This document shows positions 3,622 through 11,654 of a DNA stretch of 57,087 bases, one piece after another (within the stretch, counting starts at the first letter, position 1; each line of letters begins with the position of its first letter). Made by a program: the position numbers and the translations under genes. The DNA is from a virus. Lineage: Duplodnaviria; Heunggongvirae; Uroviricota; Caudoviricetes. Location of the stretch: the IMG/VR virus record IMGVR_UViG_2561511241_000005, positions 1 through 57,087 of that record, one strand, 5' to 3'. The notes beneath the pieces were generated by a model. That model searched no databases. It was not told where the DNA came from and was given only the letters and a program-made list of their open reading frames with translations.

Positions 3622-3700
3622 TGTTTTTCGCCTCGTTTTAAGCGCGAAAACAGCCACCAGAAAGAGGTCAACTTTCCGGTAAGCCGTTTGCTCAAGTTAA

Positions 3701-5122
3701 TTAAAAAGATGCGTTATTCTGGTTATTTCGTGGGGAAAATCGGCTTGCTGCCGGACGTTGTTGCATTGACTGTATGCAGGCGGACGCCGCGCGTGCCTGG
3801 TCGCATGGTAAAATGTTGCCGTTATCGTCAAACCGCTGGTAAACAGTCCCCGTTTTCCCGTGACGGTTTTTTGAAACGATGATCTCCATGTATTCGCGGG
3901 CAACTGATTGTTCGTTGTAGTAGCCGTCGCGGTAGACCATGATGATCCGGTCTGCGTCTTGTTCAAGATTACCGGAATCACGCAGATCAGAATTGTTCGG
4001 GCGCTTGTTCGGTCGTTCTTCAACGCGGCGGGATAATTGCGCCAGCGCCGCCACTGGCACGCGCAACTCTTTCGCCATCATTTTCAATGACCACGACAAT
4101 TGCCCTACGGCGAGATCATGACGTTCGGCCTTAGCCAGCTTCATTAACCCGATGTAGTCAATCATTACCATTCCCAGGTTAGGATGATCCTGTTTCATCC
4201 GTTCGACGGTGGCGCGTATTTCCTCGACCGTTAACTGCGATGCGTCAACAATCCACACATCGAGATCGGCAAGGGCGCTCATTCCCTGGGCGACGTGCGC
4301 CCACCCTTCATCATCAAGTTTTACCGGATTGCGTAGGCAGTCGGTTGATAAATTACCAGCGCCAGCGATGGCACGTTCAGTCATCTGATCTAGTGACATT
4401 TCAAGCGTGAACAGTAAAACACCTACCCGCTGACCTTCTCCGCCAGGGTATGGACGTTCAGCCGCCGCGCGGGCAATTGCCAACGCCAACGCAGATTTAC
4501 CAGATCCAGGGCGTCCGGCGATAAGTACCAGATCAGTAGCGTTAATGCCTCCTAACATTTCGTCGAGTGGGTCGATCCCTGTTTTGATGTTGTCAGAGTT
4601 CACGCCACACTCCATGCGTTTACTTAACACTTCCGTGTACTCCTGTACCGCGTCGCGCAACAGCACCGGAATAATCTTGTCTTTCGTTACTTTTAATTTT
4701 GAATACCGGGAATCAAAATATTTCATCGTCTCCCTGACAGCTTCAAGTGTCCCGGTCTCCAGGTTGTAGCGTATATCGTCCATCAGTTCCAACATCTGCC
4801 GCCGCTGATATTCCTCCTGTAATAGCGCGGCGTACCCCTTAAGGTTGGCGGCAGATGGACACGATCGCGCCGTTTGCATTAGCGGGACAAAATTTTCGTT
4901 ACCGATTTCATCACCGACCATCAGCGCGTCAATAAGGTTTCTGTTTCTGGCTTGCGCCCGGATTATCTCAAACGCTCGTTTATATAGTGGAATGGTGAAG
5001 ACTTCAGGATCGAGCGTAGCAAGAACATCTTGCGCGTTAGGAGTAAGACCGCCCAACAGGAGGCCACCTATCACAGCCGCCTCCCGTTCCTGGCGTAATG
5101 AGTTTACTTGCTCAGTCACCAT
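3701..5122 (-). CDS. DnaB-family replicative DNA helicase
   Basis: 473 aa; Walker A GRPGSGKS, DnaB-like N-terminal domain; GGAGG RBS upstream. Confidence 0.9.
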   Translation of the reverse strand: MVTEQVNSLRQEREAAVIGGLLLGGLTPNAQDVLATLDPEVFTIPLYKRAFEIIRAQARNRNLIDALMVGDEIGNENFVPLMQTARSCPSAANLKGYAALLQEEYQRRQMLELMDDIRYNLETGTLEAVRETMKYFDSRYSKLKVTKDKIIPVLLRDAVQEYTEVLSKRMECGVNSDNIKTGIDPLDEMLGGINATDLVLIAGRPGSGKSALALAIARAAAERPYPGGEGQRVGVLLFTLEMSLDQMTERAIAGAGNLSTDCLRNPVKLDDEGWAHVAQGMSALADLDVWIVDASQLTVEEIRATVERMKQDHPNLGMVMIDYIGLMKLAKAERHDLAVGQLSWSLKMMAKELRVPVAALAQLSRRVEERPNKRPNNSDLRDSGNLEQDADRIIMVYRDGYYNEQSVAREYMEIIVSKNRHGKTGTVYQRFDDNGNILPCDQARAASACIQSMQQRPAASRFSPRNNQNNASF

Positions 5123-5140: not shown

Positions 5141-6259
5141 TTACAGAATGGAATATTCAGGGTAATAAACAAAGCGCCCGATCTCCCCGTGATCAGGACT
5201 GTAAATTATTACCGCCGCCAGCCGCCGCGACCGCCAGCCGCCATTCGTTGAATAAGCGTCTTTGCCCGCTAACGTGCCGTGGTACTCAACAACGCCCAAC
5301 GATGATTCAATCAGCCGTTGGTGATGCCAGTGCCCGCAATGAGCGTAAACCGCCGATGACTTGCCGAAATCCTCCCGCCAGTCAGAGACGCACGCAGCCA
5401 ACAAATTTTCGGGTTTTTTGATAGTGTGCCCGTGATGATAGGCAAGGAATGTTTTGCCGTACTGTGTGTGGTGGACGATAGCAGGGGATACATCAACCGT
5501 CACACGCGGTTCATCTTCGTAAAAAGCCGCCAGCGCCGCACGTAGCCAAATCATCCCTGATTGGTCATGGTTGCCGGATAACACTTGGATCTCGACGTCT
5601 TTATGATTTAGTAACATCTTCCCGACCGCCCGCCGGACAGACCGGATAGCCACATAAACAAGTTTTGCGTAGCGGCTATCTTGATCAAGGATATGACCGC
5701 TTGTTGGTGTAACCGGGATCATCCCATCAGAATGAAGTAGATCCCCACCCAACAGCAAAACAGCTTTTTCAGACATTGGCGCAGCGCCTACCGCGTAGTC
5801 AAAGAAATCATTTAGCACGCGTTCAGCGATCCCGGTGTCGTAGCTCTCACCGCATTCAGCTTTATGAGCAAGCGCACCGATATGAAGATCGAATACCGGA
5901 TAAAGGGCCAGGCTTTTTTGGAAATCAATTTCAGGCACTGGCACGGCCTCCGCGCGTGGTATCTCTTCCGTGAAAGCGTCGCAAGCCGATTGCATTAGCC
6001 TTTCCATTTCGTCGCGATCACGGGATGTTTTAATCCAGCGCATAATCACATTGCCATCCTTATCGACTAGCAATGACTCGCCATTGACGCCAAAACCAGG
6101 TGCGCGGCGCGTGGATATTAAACCGCGCTTCGCCAGCCTTGCGCCCAGGCGTTCGACGTTGCGTTTTGCCATTCCATATTCTTCGGCTATTTGCTTGTAA
6201 GTTTTACCATTCTTGTATTCAGCGATCAGTTGTTCGTCGCTGATCTTTCTTTGTGACAT
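5141..6259 (-). CDS. HTH-domain protein fused to calcineurin-like metallophosphoesterase
   Basis: 372 aa; N-terminal HTH (KTYKQIAEEYGMAKRNVERLGARLAKRG); DLHIG, GDLLHSDG, GNHD, GHWHH phosphoesterase motifs; GAGGAA RBS. Confidence 0.7.
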   Translation of the reverse strand: MSQRKISDEQLIAEYKNGKTYKQIAEEYGMAKRNVERLGARLAKRGLISTRRAPGFGVNGESLLVDKDGNVIMRWIKTSRDRDEMERLMQSACDAFTEEIPRAEAVPVPEIDFQKSLALYPVFDLHIGALAHKAECGESYDTGIAERVLNDFFDYAVGAAPMSEKAVLLLGGDLLHSDGMIPVTPTSGHILDQDSRYAKLVYVAIRSVRRAVGKMLLNHKDVEIQVLSGNHDQSGMIWLRAALAAFYEDEPRVTVDVSPAIVHHTQYGKTFLAYHHGHTIKKPENLLAACVSDWREDFGKSSAVYAHCGHWHHQRLIESSLGVVEYHGTLAGKDAYSTNGGWRSRRLAAVIIYSPDHGEIGRFVYYPEYSIL

Positions 6260-6292
6260 AACGTTATTTCCTCAGGTTTACATTTTGTATAT

Positions 6293-7012
6293 TTAACCAC
6301 AAACGAATAATTTAGTTATCCATGCTTGGCCCTTAGCAGTGAATAACGCTTGCTCATATCCATCGAAAGTTAATTTCATCTCGCCGTATCCTTTATCAAT
6401 AAACCATTGACTAAATACACGACGACGACAACGAAGATCATAAACTCCAACAGCTTCGAGCTTTCTGTTTAATTTAATCGCAGACATTCCCAGCGCTTTT
6501 CCGACTTCTGAAGCCGTGCGGTGCATGTCGTTTTTAACAATGGCATCACAGACAGCCGCTTTTGGCGCAAGCTGTTTATTAACCAGTGCAAGCCGTTCCT
6601 TTTCCTCAGCAAGATCGGCAGCAAGGCGCAACGCTTCGCTTAATGTTTGAGGAATTGCAGGAGTGTTTTGCTGTACCCGTTTTTCAAGTTCAAACCATCG
6701 ATCAATAACAGCCGTCCGGCGCTTGATGTCGTAGCCAGTTATTAAAATCTCAGTGTATCTTCTATCGAGAAGATATTCCCAGCTATTCGGATTGTTTTTA
6801 TCATATTGATTGCATATAACTGATTGATTTGTAACGTAACTCAAATCTGATTTACGAATATAATCATCAGGTTTACCGCCTAACAATGCAGAAAGCATAA
6901 CGCGAATATCACGGCATACATTAAGATGTTTCTTACCAGTTAAATCTGCAATCTCACGCGATGACATTGTTAACACTTCATTCGCGCCATTAAGCGCCAT
7001 CAATTCAGACAT
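6293..7012 (-). CDS. Antirepressor (Rha-like N-terminus, KilAC-like C-terminus)
   Basis: ATG at 7010-7012 with GGAG RBS; EVLTMSSREIADLTGKKHLNVCRDIR Rha-like region and KilAC-like C-terminal region. Confidence 0.7.
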   Translation of the reverse strand: MSELMALNGANEVLTMSSREIADLTGKKHLNVCRDIRVMLSALLGGKPDDYIRKSDLSYVTNQSVICNQYDKNNPNSWEYLLDRRYTEILITGYDIKRRTAVIDRWFELEKRVQQNTPAIPQTLSEALRLAADLAEEKERLALVNKQLAPKAAVCDAIVKNDMHRTASEVGKALGMSAIKLNRKLEAVGVYDLRCRRRVFSQWFIDKGYGEMKLTFDGYEQALFTAKGQAWITKLFVCG

Positions 7013-7143
7013 TTTATTTTCTCCGTAAAACGCGCTACAACGCAAAAACCCACCGCGTAACCCACTTGTAAGGGTGCAGTGTCTTTTTTGCGCCAGAAGC
7101 GCAATCAGGTGGCTAATTTTCGATTTACAGACTGGTAGGTAGG

Positions 7144-7245
7144 TTATGGATTGACTAGAAGGAATAAGCCGCCGAACAAAGCGACATTAACAGCTATTGC
7201 CGCAGCTATGGCGAAAGCCAGGGCGAAAACGTGTTTACTATCCAT
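7144..7245 (-). CDS. micro-ORF encoding a 33-aa hydrophobic peptide
   Basis: MDSKHVFALAFAIAAAIAVNVALFGGLFLLVNP; GAGAGG RBS; preceded on the transcript by an inverted repeat. Confidence 0.3.
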   Translation of the reverse strand: MDSKHVFALAFAIAAAIAVNVALFGGLFLLVNP

Positions 7246-7378
7246 TTTAAAATCCTCTCTGTAACGCTCTCTAACGAGCTAATCGCAAAAAGGTAGGCAA
7301 GTGTAGCACCACATGCGATTTAGCTCGCTGGTGAGGTTGTTTTGTGGGTAATTTTGGATTTTTGCGGATCGTGGTTGG

Positions 7379-8446
7379 TCAAAGAACGCCAGCGCGCGTA
7401 TCACGTAGCGTTTTTGGTTTAAGCAGGAAATCAAGTGTCGCAGTGAAGCCATTGCCGAAGTAAAAATCTGAAGCCGTGTTTTTGAACGTTTCAAAGTAGG
7501 CGACAAAGCCGTTAATGCTTTTGTCTTTCAGGTAGTCAGTGAACGCATAGATCTTGCGTTCAAGATCCCGATCCAGTTCGGCAGGTGGTAACAGACCGTC
7601 AAACGTGCTGTTAAATGCTTCCACCACGTCGGCGGCGTTTACAGTAGCTGATAGCTTGCGCCATTGTTCAGCATCAGCCAGATACCCATCGAATTTAGTT
7701 ACCCGGCAAATGTTGATAGGCTTAGGTGTTCCACCACGGCTACGCCATTGCGTTAAAGCCCACTCAATTACTAACGTGATCTCATCCTCCGTATATGCCT
7801 TACGTGTTTTTGTTTCTGTCAGTAGTTCGATGAATGGCTTAGCGTCACGACATTTGCATCCTGCTTTTTCGTTGTAGAAGGCTAAGCAACGGTAAGCTGC
7901 CTCGCTTATCTGAAAGTAACCACCCTGATTGACCGTTTTTTGTTCATTTTCGCTAATACACGAAGTGTATATATCTTTTTCTATTTCTTCTTCTAATTCT
8001 TCTTCTAATTCTAATTCATGACCCTGACATGACCCGGTCATGACCCTATCATGACCTTTTGGCGTTGGGTTGATTAACTTTTCTAATTTGAATTGTTCTT
8101 TTGCTGCATTTATAGCAGCTCTGTAACCACTCTTAGAAGTCATTGATTGGTCCAGCCTTTTCAATAACTTTAAACAAGTTATGTGTCCTTGAGAACATTC
8201 AAATAAACCAATTTCGATGAAGTATTTCATCATTTCTTCTATACGTTTTTCAGTAGATCCGACGTTTCGCGCAATGATTCTCGCGTCATGTCGTAGGTCA
8301 AAAGTCAGATTGTGCTGATCTACGTCATAAGTAATTAATTCAAGGCAATACCAGTAAAGACCGTATCCTTCCAGGCCATAATCAAGCAAAACGTTTTGAA
8401 GTTTTTCGTCGCGGTTCGCATCGCTATCATGCTTAAACCACTTCAT
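7379..8446 (-). CDS. Replication initiation / replisome organiser protein (O-like)
   Basis: 355 aa; N-terminus MKWFKHDSDANRDEKLQ...GYGLYWYCLE typical of phage replisome-organiser N domain; GGAGGA RBS; contains iterons. Confidence 0.75.
   Translation of the reverse strand: MKWFKHDSDANRDEKLQNVLLDYGLEGYGLYWYCLELITYDVDQHNLTFDLRHDARIIARNVGSTEKRIEEMMKYFIEIGLFECSQGHITCLKLLKRLDQSMTSKSGYRAAINAAKEQFKLEKLINPTPKGHDRVMTGSCQGHELELEEELEEEIEKDIYTSCISENEQKTVNQGGYFQISEAAYRCLAFYNEKAGCKCRDAKPFIELLTETKTRKAYTEDEITLVIEWALTQWRSRGGTPKPINICRVTKFDGYLADAEQWRKLSATVNAADVVEAFNSTFDGLLPPAELDRDLERKIYAFTDYLKDKSINGFVAYFETFKNTASDFYFGNGFTATLDFLLKPKTLRDTRAGVL
8017..8056. repeat. Putative origin iterons: four direct CATGACC(C) repeats at 11-bp spacing inside the replication gene
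   Basis: CATGACCC at 8017, 8028, 8039 and CATGACC at 8050, flanked by AT-rich sequence and an acidic ELELEEELEEE-coding repeat. Confidence 0.5.
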
Positions 8447-8449
8447 AGA

Positions 8450-8704
8450 TCATTCCTCCGGCAGCATTACCAGGTAAACGTCATTTACCGGGTAAGGGTT
8501 ACAAATAAATCCTTTGTGTGTTAATCCGTCGATAGCAACCATTACCGTATTTACAGGAAGTTCACACATTTTTGCGATTTCTTGGTGTGACACCCTGGCG
8601 TGGCGGCGATTATCCGCCTTTTCTGCCAACGCCATTAAGACAAGTTTTTGAATCGGGCTGTTAAGTTCCACTTTCCAGGCCTCAGTCATCATGTGCATAC
8701 TCAT
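8450..8704 (-). CDS. HTH DNA-binding protein at the cro position
   Basis: ATG at 8702-8704 with AGGAGA RBS; 84 aa; HTH-like segment SHQEIAKMCELPVNTVMVAIDGL; first gene of leftward operon. Confidence 0.5.
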   Translation of the reverse strand: MSMHMMTEAWKVELNSPIQKLVLMALAEKADNRRHARVSHQEIAKMCELPVNTVMVAIDGLTHKGFICNPYPVNDVYLVMLPEE

Positions 8705-8821
8705 TGCTTTTTCTCCTATGGTTAAAATGAACGCGAGGGCGGGTATCCCATTAGCATTAGATAGCAGTGACTGACCGCTCAACAGATCCCGCCGTTGCGT
8801 GATATTTGTTTTTCGCTTCAC

Positions 8822-9011
8822 AGCGACACCGGGTTTTTAAAGAGCTTTTAAGGTATGTGCCTTTTTGTGCTTTCCATTATCTTTTTTCTTGCATCCTTGC
8901 AAGTATGGCCTTACCTTGTCTGCAAGTTTACAGAATGGAGTTTTAAGATCAAGGCTTGAAAAATACGTTTTGTGACTTGCGTCAAACTTTTTGAGGTTAT
9001 AGGGTAGCGAC
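8822..9011. promoter_or_regulatory. Divergent promoter/operator region between cro-position gene and CI-like repressor
   Basis: 190-bp intergenic region with repeated CTTGCA(AG) palindromic elements (8888-8927) and AT-rich promoter-like hexamers. Confidence 0.4.
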
Positions 9012-9659
9012 ATGAAAACAAAATGGTATGACTTAGCAAAGCAGCTTATGCGTGCGCAAGGCATGAGCCAGGATTCATTGGCGGATCTCATGGGGATCAC
9101 GAAAGGCGGCTTATCACACTGGCTGAATGGTCGCCGTGAGCCAAATCTTGAAGACATTGCGCGGATTATGCGGGCGCTTGGTCGTCGGCAATTCACTGTT
9201 ACACACGATGGAATGGTCATAGATGATTCTGTTTCTAACACGTTACCGGGCGCGCCACCGCGTGATTTAGGCAGTTACCCGGTTGTTGACTGGAAGGACG
9301 CAGTAAACAATATGGAAGATACAAGGCGATCAACATTACCACACGTTACAACTAGCGTTATTTGTTCAGATGATAGTTATTGGCTGGTAGCTAAAGGCGA
9401 ATCAATGAACGCGCCGCAAGGATTGAGTATACCAGCTGGGACGATGATACTTGTCGATCCGCACGCGCCAGCTATTGACGGAAAACTGGTTATAGCCCAA
9501 CTGGAGGAAGGGCAAACGCCTACGTTTAAACAGCTTGTTATTGATGGAGGTCAAAGGCTTTTACGTTCGCTCAATCCGCTGTATCCGCCAATCCCTATGA
9601 ATCCAGAATCTAAAATCATAGGTGTGGTAGTGGACGCGAAGATCGTAAACCTGCCATAA
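9012..9659 (+). CDS. CI-like repressor (HTH-XRE N-domain, S24 LexA-like peptidase C-domain)
   Basis: 215 aa; HTH near N-terminus; GESM (Ser) and TFKQL (Lys) self-cleavage dyad motifs. Confidence 0.85.
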   Translation: MKTKWYDLAKQLMRAQGMSQDSLADLMGITKGGLSHWLNGRREPNLEDIARIMRALGRRQFTVTHDGMVIDDSVSNTLPGAPPRDLGSYPVVDWKDAVNNMEDTRRSTLPHVTTSVICSDDSYWLVAKGESMNAPQGLSIPAGTMILVDPHAPAIDGKLVIAQLEEGQTPTFKQLVIDGGQRLLRSLNPLYPPIPMNPESKIIGVVVDAKIVNLP

Positions 9660-10483: not shown

Positions 10484-10603
10484 ATGGTTATCGAGGCGCT
10501 TCAATTCAAACTGGCTGTAGCGGAAATGCTTCACGATGCCGAAATGTGGAGCGCCGCGAATAAAGCCTTATACGTAGTGTTAACAGCGAAGGAGATTAAA
10601 TAG
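10484..10603 (+). CDS. small hypothetical protein (39 aa)
   Basis: Strong AGGAGGTGA RBS; stop overlaps GTG start of erf. Confidence 0.4.
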   Translation: MVIEALQFKLAVAEMLHDAEMWSAANKALYVVLTAKEIK

Positions 10604-11238
10604 TGAAAACAGAGTTACACAAAAAGCTGTGGACGATTCAGCAAACGCTGAACGCGCCGAAAAATCAGCGTAATAATTTTGGCGGGTATAATTACAGGTC
10701 GGCGGAGGATATTCTAGAGGCGGTTAAACCACTGCTTCAAAATATCACGCTGACTGTTAGTGATGAAATCGTCCTGATCGGCAATCGCTATTATGTGAAA
10801 GCAACGGCGACACTAAGCGACGGTGAAGACGAAATATCGGTAACTGCTTACGCCAGGGAAGAAGAAAGCAAGAAGGGAATGGACGCAAGCCAGCTAACTG
10901 GCGCGACATCAAGTTACGCGCGAAAATATGCTTTGAACGGCTTATTCTGCATTGATGACGCAAAAGATCCTGATACTGATGCTTACGCGAAACAGACAAA
11001 TCAACAGCCGCGACAGCAGAAAAACCCGCCAAAACAACAGCAGCAGAAAGCGCCGCCAAATCCTGATGAAGTATTAGCACGTTTCTGTGATGCAGCAGCA
11101 AAAGCGCCTGACGCTAACAAGTTACGCGAGATCTTCGGCAAGTGCTGGAAGCTATTGCCTAAGGATTCAGAACAACAACAGAAAGCGAAAGACGTTTATG
11201 ACATTCGCTTAAAAGAGCTTAACGGGGAGATCAATTAA
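10603..11238 (+). CDS. erf: Erf-family single-strand annealing recombination protein
   Basis: 211 aa; NAPKNQ...GGYNYRSAEDILEAVKPLL...YYVKATATLSDGE...SYARKYALNGLF closely resembles P22 Erf. Confidence 0.85.
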   Translation: MKTELHKKLWTIQQTLNAPKNQRNNFGGYNYRSAEDILEAVKPLLQNITLTVSDEIVLIGNRYYVKATATLSDGEDEISVTAYAREEESKKGMDASQLTGATSSYARKYALNGLFCIDDAKDPDTDAYAKQTNQQPRQQKNPPKQQQQKAPPNPDEVLARFCDAAAKAPDANKLREIFGKCWKLLPKDSEQQQKAKDVYDIRLKELNGEIN

Positions 11239-11654
11239 TGAGTTTAAATTCAATCACGCTGGGCGGGAATATCGGTAATGATATGGAAGTGCGCTACACG
11301 CAAAACGGGAAAGCTATTGGTAGTTTTCCGTTAGCTGTAACGAATGGCTACGGCGATAATAAGCGGGTAATGTGGATCACTTGTCTGGTATTTGGTGAGC
11401 GTGCGGAAAAATTAGCGCCGCATATCCGCAAGGGTGGAAAGATAGTGGTAAGCGGTCGCCTGGATGTTCGGCAGTTTGACCGGAACGATGGCACGAAGGG
11501 GACGGCGGTCGAAGTGGCGGTTAATGAGTTCGAATTCATGAACGTCAACCAACAAGGCCAGCAGCAAGGCCAGCAGCAGAAAGCGCCGCCGCAGCAGCAG
11601 AATAATAACGGGAATAATCCGCCGATGGACTTCGACGACGATATTCCTTTTTAG
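11238..11654 (+). CDS. ssb: Single-stranded DNA-binding protein
   Basis: 138 aa; OB-fold SSB pattern, Gln/Gly-rich linker and acidic C-terminal tail DDDIPF. Confidence 0.9.
   Translation: MSLNSITLGGNIGNDMEVRYTQNGKAIGSFPLAVTNGYGDNKRVMWITCLVFGERAEKLAPHIRKGGKIVVSGRLDVRQFDRNDGTKGTAVEVAVNEFEFMNVNQQGQQQGQQQKAPPQQQNNNGNNPPMDFDDDIPF

Follow-up and report, generated by a model that had tools for sequence, protein, structure and literature searches.

A helix-turn-helix–metallophosphoesterase protein of a widespread phage family, encoded in the replication operon of a temperate coliphage

The stretch of DNA analysed here, IMG/VR virus record IMGVR_UViG_2561511241_000005 (57,087 nucleotides, hereafter the window), harbors a complete gene for a protein in which an N-terminal helix-turn-helix (HTH) domain is fused to a calcineurin-like metallophosphoesterase (MPE) domain (Table 1). 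A preliminary description had proposed this 372-aa open reading frame (ORF) and its architecture, and both hold, the coding strand being the minus strand. Translation would start at an ATG at 6259-6257. As homologues are found with E values down to 1e-241, the ORF is not a chance one; the gene is confirmed as genuine, and its product is predicted to join an HTH to an MPE domain with intact motifs. As had also been described, the gene lies between an antirepressor and a helicase in a replication operon, 33 nt separating it from the Ant/KilAC gene and 18 nt separating its stop codon from the DnaB-like helicase gene. The first 25 kb of the window have 87-89% nucleotide identity to Escherichia phages mEp010, mEp013, mEp044, mEp554, mEp515 and mEp021, known as the 'mEpimmI' group of Nus-dependent, non-lambdoid temperate coliphages (PMC11893012), and by this similarity the window is assigned to an mEpimmI-group (mEp021-like) temperate coliphage.

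Table 1. Features of the HTH-MPE gene, its predicted protein and the surrounding replication genes (residue numbers refer to the 372-aa protein).
Feature	Coordinates	Strand	Remarks
HTH-metallophosphoesterase coding sequence, complete	5141..6259	(-)	372 aa + stop codon; PHROG 704 member; 95.7% identity to mEp013_11
Shine-Dalgarno GAGGA	6269..6273	(-)	9 nt 5' of ATG; read straight from sequence
N-terminal HTH, residues 1-50, sigma-70 region 4 / LuxR-GerE type	6110..6259	(-)	Sub-threshold here, significant in relatives
Linker, residues 51-110	5930..6109	(-)	Predicted beta-hairpin 58-78 and helix 79-97; low model confidence
Calcineurin-like MPE domain, residues 111-372	5144..5929	(-)
Motif I, D124-L-H126	5882..5890	(-)	Invariant in 68 representatives; after strand 114-122
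Motif II, G172-D173-L-L-H176	5732..5746	(-)	G172, D173 invariant, H176 at least 90%; after strand 163-170
Family-specific conserved insertion after motif II, residues 177-199, SDGxxPVTPxSGHxLDxDSRYxK	5663..5731	(-)	Poorly modelled
Motif III, G229-N230-H231-D232	5564..5575	(-)	N230, H231 invariant; after strand 219-226
Motif IV region, H275-H276-G277-H278	5426..5437	(-)	H276 invariant; after strand 270-275
Motif V, G309-H310-W-H312	5324..5335	(-)	G309, H312 invariant, H310 at least 90%; after strand 303-309
Second family-specific conserved loop, residues 333-346, KDAYxxxGGWRSxR	5222..5263	(-)	Low model confidence
DnaB-like replicative helicase	3701..5122	(-)	3' neighbour, same operon; phrog_19 E 2.2e-110
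Ant/KilAC anti-repressor-like protein	6293..7045	(-)	5' neighbour, same operon; phrog_63 E 3.8e-48
O-like replication initiator	7379-8446	(-)	Upstream of the Ant/KilAC gene
Small HTH ORF resembling the N-terminus of replication initiators	8450-8821	(-)
cI-type repressor	9012-9659		Divergent from the replication genes

The predicted protein matches PHROG 704, a family labelled 'DNA repair exonuclease', from residue 4 to residue 368 (profile positions 2-387 of 390, E 2.1e-140), and PHROG 284 ('exonuclease') more weakly and through its MPE part only; judged by these profiles, it belongs to PHROG 704 / VOG9929 over its full length. Relatives are detected by tblastn in 2,040 phage records, whose hosts include Escherichia, Klebsiella, Salmonella, Vibrio, Campylobacter, Flavobacterium and Rhodobacter, and an exhaustive HMMER scan gives 4,408 clusters at 50% identity with E ≤ 1e-3, 962 of them with E ≤ 1e-30. 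Most clusters measure 370-420 aa, which indicates that the N-terminal extension is kept. The annotations of these relatives are inconsistent ('DNA repair exonuclease', 'putative phosphoesterase', 'wHTH protein', 'oxidoreductase' or 'hypothetical'). The members aaroes gp03 (Escherichia phage, 67% identical to the window protein), skrot gp41, mEp013_11 and mEp021_11 share with it the HTH and MPE domains as well as the invariant motifs. They differ from the window copy in neighbourhood only, since the gene lies at the lysis cassette in Drexlerviridae and in tail or nin regions elsewhere, and next to dnaB in a replication operon in the window. The window copy is unremarkable among the members of this very large, phage-specific family, which had been catalogued before.

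The MPE domain had been credited with the 'full set' of phosphoesterase motifs, DxH, GDxxD, GNHD and GHxH; all are present, but motif II reads GDxxH and not GDxxD. Conservation was assessed in an alignment of 68 representatives with 30-57% identity to the window protein, in which D124, H126, G172, D173, T184, N230, H231, H276, G309 and H312 are invariant and H176, D178, D192, D194, R196, D232, H310 and D334 are conserved in at least 90%. As the metal-ligand residues are invariant, the canonical ligands are under strict selection. An AlphaFold2 model of the window protein (27 sequences in, mean pLDDT 74.6, pTM 0.67) has an alpha/beta core. Each of its motifs stands immediately behind a beta-strand, in keeping with the beta-sandwich MPE fold, whose motifs lie at the C-terminal ends of strands. 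Conservation extends to the family-specific insertion after motif II, where T184 is invariant and D178, L191, D192, D194 and R196 are nearly so.

Structure searches with the model return MPE enzymes of several kinds at similar scores: SbcD (7dog, 12.7), the small subunit DP1 of archaeal PolD (5ihe, 12.5), MJ0936 (1s3l, 12.5), Mre11 (4yke, 12.3), the Pol delta B-subunit (12.1), LpxH (11.7) and the class III (CpdA/Rv0805) cyclic-nucleotide phosphodiesterase Rv0805 (10.4). Foldseek places Mre11, LpxH, PolD and Rv0805 all at E ~1e-4 with TM scores of 0.3-0.4, and a search of BFVD finds many uncharacterised phage homologues. In a Pfam scan of the window protein, no Metallophos model (PF00149/PF12850) scores above its gathering threshold; among the relatives PF00149 is found in 15 of the 68 at E<0.01, and in one (P0148) above the cut-off, with 25.1 vs 21.5 bits. 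The HTH-MPE family is, on these scores, too divergent for the Pfam Metallophos model. Sequence and profile searches against solved structures, started from the protein alone, from a profile of its close family and from the 68-member profile, likewise give no significant MPE match, the best being T. maritima Mre11 (E 0.3) and a P. putida MPE (E 1.5). By its structure matches, the protein is solidly assigned to the MPE superfamily but to no one subfamily of it, hence to no one substrate.

The N-terminal domain had been described as a sigma-region-4-like HTH, a reading that is reasonable for the family and falls below threshold in the window protein itself (HTH_28 E 0.009; TIGR02937 region 4 E 0.007; Sigma70_r4_2 E 0.05, with 13.7 bits against a cut-off of 25.7). 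Among the 68 relatives, the N-terminus is matched by Sigma70_r4_2 in 11 (best 1.5e-9), HTH_1 in 12, GerE in six (best 2.4e-8) and by other HTH models, and the best PDB match of the family profile is GerE (1fse, E 0.011). The model has three helices here, at residues 8-16, 21-28 and 32-44. Sequence conservation is lower in this domain than in the rest of the protein. An HTH is kept throughout the family, which argues for an enzyme bound to DNA. In the linker, W75 is invariant in close alignments and conserved in at least 90% of distant relatives.

The genes that accompany the HTH-MPE gene elsewhere were surveyed in 85 viral loci, collected with a 10-member alignment, and in 67 prophage loci of Alpha-, Beta- and Gammaproteobacteria. 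In Drexlerviridae-type genomes, holin, endolysin and spanin genes lie 3' of it, and the module built around the HTH-MPE gene occurs in 508 of 522 Drexlerviridae genomes, with gene families classed as persistent (PMC13164509, 2026). A HAD Pnkp-type phosphatase (phrog_415) and a deoxynucleoside monophosphate (dNMP) kinase (phrog_139) follow directly 3' in two distinct lineages. Among 45 Drexler-type loci 15-17 have them, and among 39 Jersey/Kaguna-type loci 7-8; examples are the IMG/VR Klebsiella-phage-like contigs L025 (7160-7648) and L033 (7655-8227) and the Jersey/Kaguna-like L055, L057, L062-L064 and L066. In agreement with this, a polynucleotide kinase and a dNMP kinase have independently been reported as the commonest genes right after the HTH-MPE gene in phages that lack the SH3 gene (PMC13164509). 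The phosphatase and kinase pair may form with the MPE a nucleotide-salvage or end-healing module. In the 67 prophage loci, the neighbours are endolysin (8), NinG/Rap (6), NinB (5), terminase large subunit (5-7), dNMP-kinase-like (5), DUF5664 dNTP-pyrophosphohydrolase-like (4), HNH_3 endonuclease (4), RusA (2) and DnaB-like helicase (2) genes. What these neighbourhoods have in common is genes acting on DNA junctions or in nucleotide metabolism, at the border between early and late genes. With a DnaB-like helicase in only two prophage loci, helicase adjacency is a trait of the mEpimmI group and not of the family; the position had been called unusual, which overstates it, as the HTH-MPE fusion is standard in PHROG 704 and the adjacency alone is peculiar to the group.

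Two further neighbours were considered as conserved partners and rejected. An HNH_3-type endonuclease gene lies directly 3' of the HTH-MPE gene in mEp021 (L086, 6080-6583), skrot (L003, 6171-6671) and Vibrio phage 91E30-1 (L004, 6208-6717), which belong to three unrelated groups, and is missing from the window. The Jerseyvirus and Vibrio-phage copies have only the HNH motif in common, the mEp021 copy being known from annotation alone, and these genes look like independent insertions of homing endonucleases beside a conserved target. Ant/KilAC recurs in the mEp group and in Jerseyvirus, not generally.

The reading preferred here, tentatively and at somewhat less than an even chance, is that the family consists of DNA-tethered, stand-alone binuclear MPEs that act on DNA in phage DNA or nucleotide metabolism, a proposal in which substrate, metal and role are all inferred. 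The sigma-4/LuxR-type HTH would hold the catalytically intact MPE on DNA, where it would hydrolyze phosphodiester bonds in a Mn2+-dependent manner, as an exo- or endonuclease and with no ATPase of the Rad50/SbcC type. Such an activity might serve recombination-dependent replication by processing ends or intermediates of the DNA, and/or break DNA down to mononucleotides that the neighbouring nucleotide kinases would recycle; in a phage of the mEpimmI type, the gene would be co-transcribed with the replication genes for the O-like initiator, Ant and DnaB. Besides the conserved HTH and the metal-ligand motifs, which are invariant in the 68 relatives and stand at strand ends in the model, three observations count for this proposal. 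The neighbours are consistently genes of DNA and nucleotide metabolism, which suggests a DNA-acting enzyme, and the persistence of the module in Drexlerviridae points to a function in the core life cycle (PMC13164509). In addition, for the MPE Gp48 of mycobacteriophage A10ZJ24 phosphodiesterase activity has been measured, along with damage to host DNA (PMC12287305), which serves as a precedent for an MPE of phages that acts on DNA.

A bolder version of the proposal gives the HTH-guided, self-sufficient nuclease a role in host takeover, either by degrading the host chromosome to feed salvage through the dNMP kinase and phosphatase or by destroying a host immune signal or nucleic acid. This is doubtful, and is held to be distinctly less probable than the general form. 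If host-DNA degradation were true, the HTH-MPE protein would be a candidate for the still unidentified host-DNA-degradation function of T1-like phages.

It had been suggested that the protein may be Mre11/SbcD-like, and this stands at the level of the fold only, where LpxH, Rv0805 and MJ0936 score as well. The capping domain of Mre11/SbcD is without counterpart in the window protein, which stops 60 residues past motif V and in turn has the extra N-terminal HTH and the two family-specific loops. No SbcC/Rad50 partner was found among the scanned window ORFs of at least 200 aa, the three longest of which, the only ones over 500 aa, encode the tape measure protein, a J-like central fibre and a tail fibre; nor was a partner of this type seen at the homologous loci. 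PHROG 100 (SbcD-like) is not matched. A true Mre11/SbcD identity is thus rejected, given that the capping domain, the partner and any profile similarity are all missing. DP1, a 3'-5' proofreading exonuclease, is similarly alike in fold only, as the window protein has no OB-fold, no DP2 partner and no sequence similarity to it.

The cluster A mycobacteriophage proteins Bxb1 gp47 and its orthologue A10ZJ24 Gp48 (PHROG 221) are likewise phage MPEs encoded among replication genes, as seen on the Bxb1 map. Gp47 has 255 aa, lacks an HTH and reads DTQ at motif I; its motif III-V regions align locally with the HTH-MPE family, and it has a similar C-terminal 'K.A.Y..GG..W' loop. PHROG 221 is not matched by the window protein, and hhalign of the family profile against the single sequences of E. 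coli SbcD, lambda NinI and Bxb1 gp47 gives short motif-level alignments with probabilities of 0.6-11%. The gp47 family is best regarded as a functional precedent and not as a demonstrated relative beyond the superfamily. As a separate observation on this locus (NC_002656.1, 3876-4788), RefSeq labels gp46 the recombination directionality factor (RDF) and gp47 the metallo-phosphoesterase; the gp47 homologue of phage Pari, 99% identical, is named 'RDF protein', and the Bxb1 label therefore looks shifted by one gene.

Several results weigh against the proposal of a DNA-acting enzyme. The structural model is of moderate quality, as its mean pLDDT indicates, and leaves the conserved loops 177-199 and 333-346, near the active site, unmodelled. 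The small-molecule phosphodiesterases MJ0936, LpxH, Rv0805 and GpdQ score equal to the nucleases in structure searches. Profile similarity to Mre11/SbcD is lacking both for T. maritima Mre11 in the PDB profile search (E 0.3) and for E. coli SbcD (hhalign 2.6%, hmmsearch -1.3 bits), and a specific link to the Bxb1 gp47 family was rejected with a 26-member gp47 profile (profile-profile probability 3.2%; hmmsearch 5.9 bits). The region 3' of the HTH-MPE gene forms a hot spot of variation, where HNH homing endonucleases also insert, so that the adjacency of the kinase may be incidental. Finally, literature searches for functional data on PHROG 704 returned only genome-annotation papers and no experiment on any member, and the database label 'DNA repair exonuclease' is a propagated prediction that does not count as evidence.

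Among the alternatives, a phosphodiesterase for small molecules or nucleotides survives best, although it is considered unlikely. Such an enzyme would act on cyclic mono-, di- or oligonucleotides, Ap4A or 2',3'-cyclic phosphates, perhaps in counter-defence, with the HTH serving for autoregulation or localisation. It would accord with the structural searches, in which the nucleases come no closer than MJ0936, LpxH, the cNMP (cyclic nucleotide) phosphodiesterase Rv0805, GpdQ and the Ap4A hydrolase Spr1479, and with the lack of the Mre11/SbcD capping domain and ATPase partner. Against this stand the family-wide conservation of a DNA-binding domain, neighbours that belong to DNA and nucleotide metabolism and not to anti-defence islands, and literature searches in which no link was found. 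The phage enzymes known to degrade signals, Acb1 and Apyc1, have folds other than that of the MPEs, which also counts against it. The preliminary description had raised an anti-defence role in the turnover of signalling nucleotides, for which no positive evidence emerged: the PADLOC defence-system models matched 0 families at E ≤ 1, and in Drexlerviridae the gene is persistent and fixed in position, unlike variable accessory counter-defence genes (PMC13164509).

It could also be argued that the protein heals nucleic-acid ends, as a 3'-phosphatase or 2',3'-cyclic phosphodiesterase working with the Pnkp-type phosphatase and P-loop kinase of the lytic relatives, much as the MPE domain of bacterial Pnkp does in repairing RNA or DNA, an idea that is judged improbable. 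The MPE domain of Clostridium thermocellum Pnkp carries out end healing, the phrog_415 and phrog_139 genes directly follow the MPE gene at the frequencies given above, and small proteins akin to a polynucleotide kinase-phosphatase PHROG adjoin prophage homologues. Nevertheless, no ligase was seen in the neighbourhoods with the Pnkp-type phosphatase and kinase, the kinase matches dNMP kinase and not polynucleotide kinase, the window gene is adjoined by neither partner, and similarity to MPEs of the lambda-phosphatase type is absent.

A role as a transcription or replication regulator, in which the HTH would be the working part and the MPE a sensor or structural module like the inactive B-subunits of DNA polymerases, is most improbable. 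The B-subunits of eukaryotic DNA polymerases, whose MPE fold is inactive, have lost the metal ligands, whereas every metal-ligand residue is invariant even in distant relatives of the window protein, and it is the N-terminal domain that is conserved least.

A protein Ser/Thr phosphatase like lambda NinI, also an MPE-superfamily enzyme of the phage early/nin region, can practically be set aside: proteobacterial prophage homologues do lie among NinB, NinG and RusA genes, 5' of lysis and packaging genes, where lambda has ninI in the comparable slot of lambdoid phages, yet the suggested comparison with lambda phosphatase gives no sequence or profile match (hhalign 0.6%, hmmsearch -2.6 bits), and the signatures GDxxDRG and GNHE of such PPP-type phosphatases are replaced by GDLLHSDG and GNHD.

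The family is of interest because PHROG 704 is among the most widespread conserved phage proteins without a tested function, being found in ~2,000 sequenced phages and in prophages of Proteobacteria, and is near-universal in the T1-like phages used in therapy. Assigning an activity would correct many propagated 'DNA repair exonuclease' annotations and could show how siphophages without a polymerase handle DNA or nucleotides. To this the window copy adds little beyond the placement of the family inside the replication operon of a temperate coliphage.

Within the mEpimmI group, the mEp013 homologue is annotated 'hypothetical protein', the mEp021 counterpart is mEp021_11, and neither the paper on the group nor its supplements discuss the gene (PMC11893012). 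The gene is also carried by 34 of the 5,426 complete E. coli genomes, at 80-95% nucleotide identity, and is annotated as 'hypothetical protein' in all of the matches listed. The slot 5' of it varies in the group, being occupied by Ant/KilAC in the window and in mEp013-like phages and by a 495-aa zinc-ribbon protein in mEp021 (7737-9224 of that locus); in Jerseyvirus, a Rha+KilAC protein is encoded two genes from the homologue (Salmonella phage skrot locus, 7026-7697).

A consensus scan between the genes of the window operon found no promoter or terminator signals above chance, which fits a single operon. About 20 nt past the DnaB stop codon, a hairpin with an 11-bp stem is followed by a T-rich tail (3654-3682, minus strand), a possible terminator or attenuator closing the replication gene block. 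The replication initiator of the window is encoded by two adjacent minus-strand ORFs 3 nt apart (Table 1), which may be naturally two genes or one gene that has been split. On the plus strand, an Erf-like single-strand annealing protein (10603-11238) is encoded together with an SSB-like ORF (11238-11654); no recognisable dedicated exonuclease was found among the small ORFs neighbouring this pair, and the HTH-MPE protein could be its missing resection nuclease. At the right end of the window, 3' of the tail-fibre gene, a 481-aa ORF (55642-57087, minus strand) without a PHROG match might be either a moron, with a part in lysogenic conversion, or a gene of flanking host DNA.

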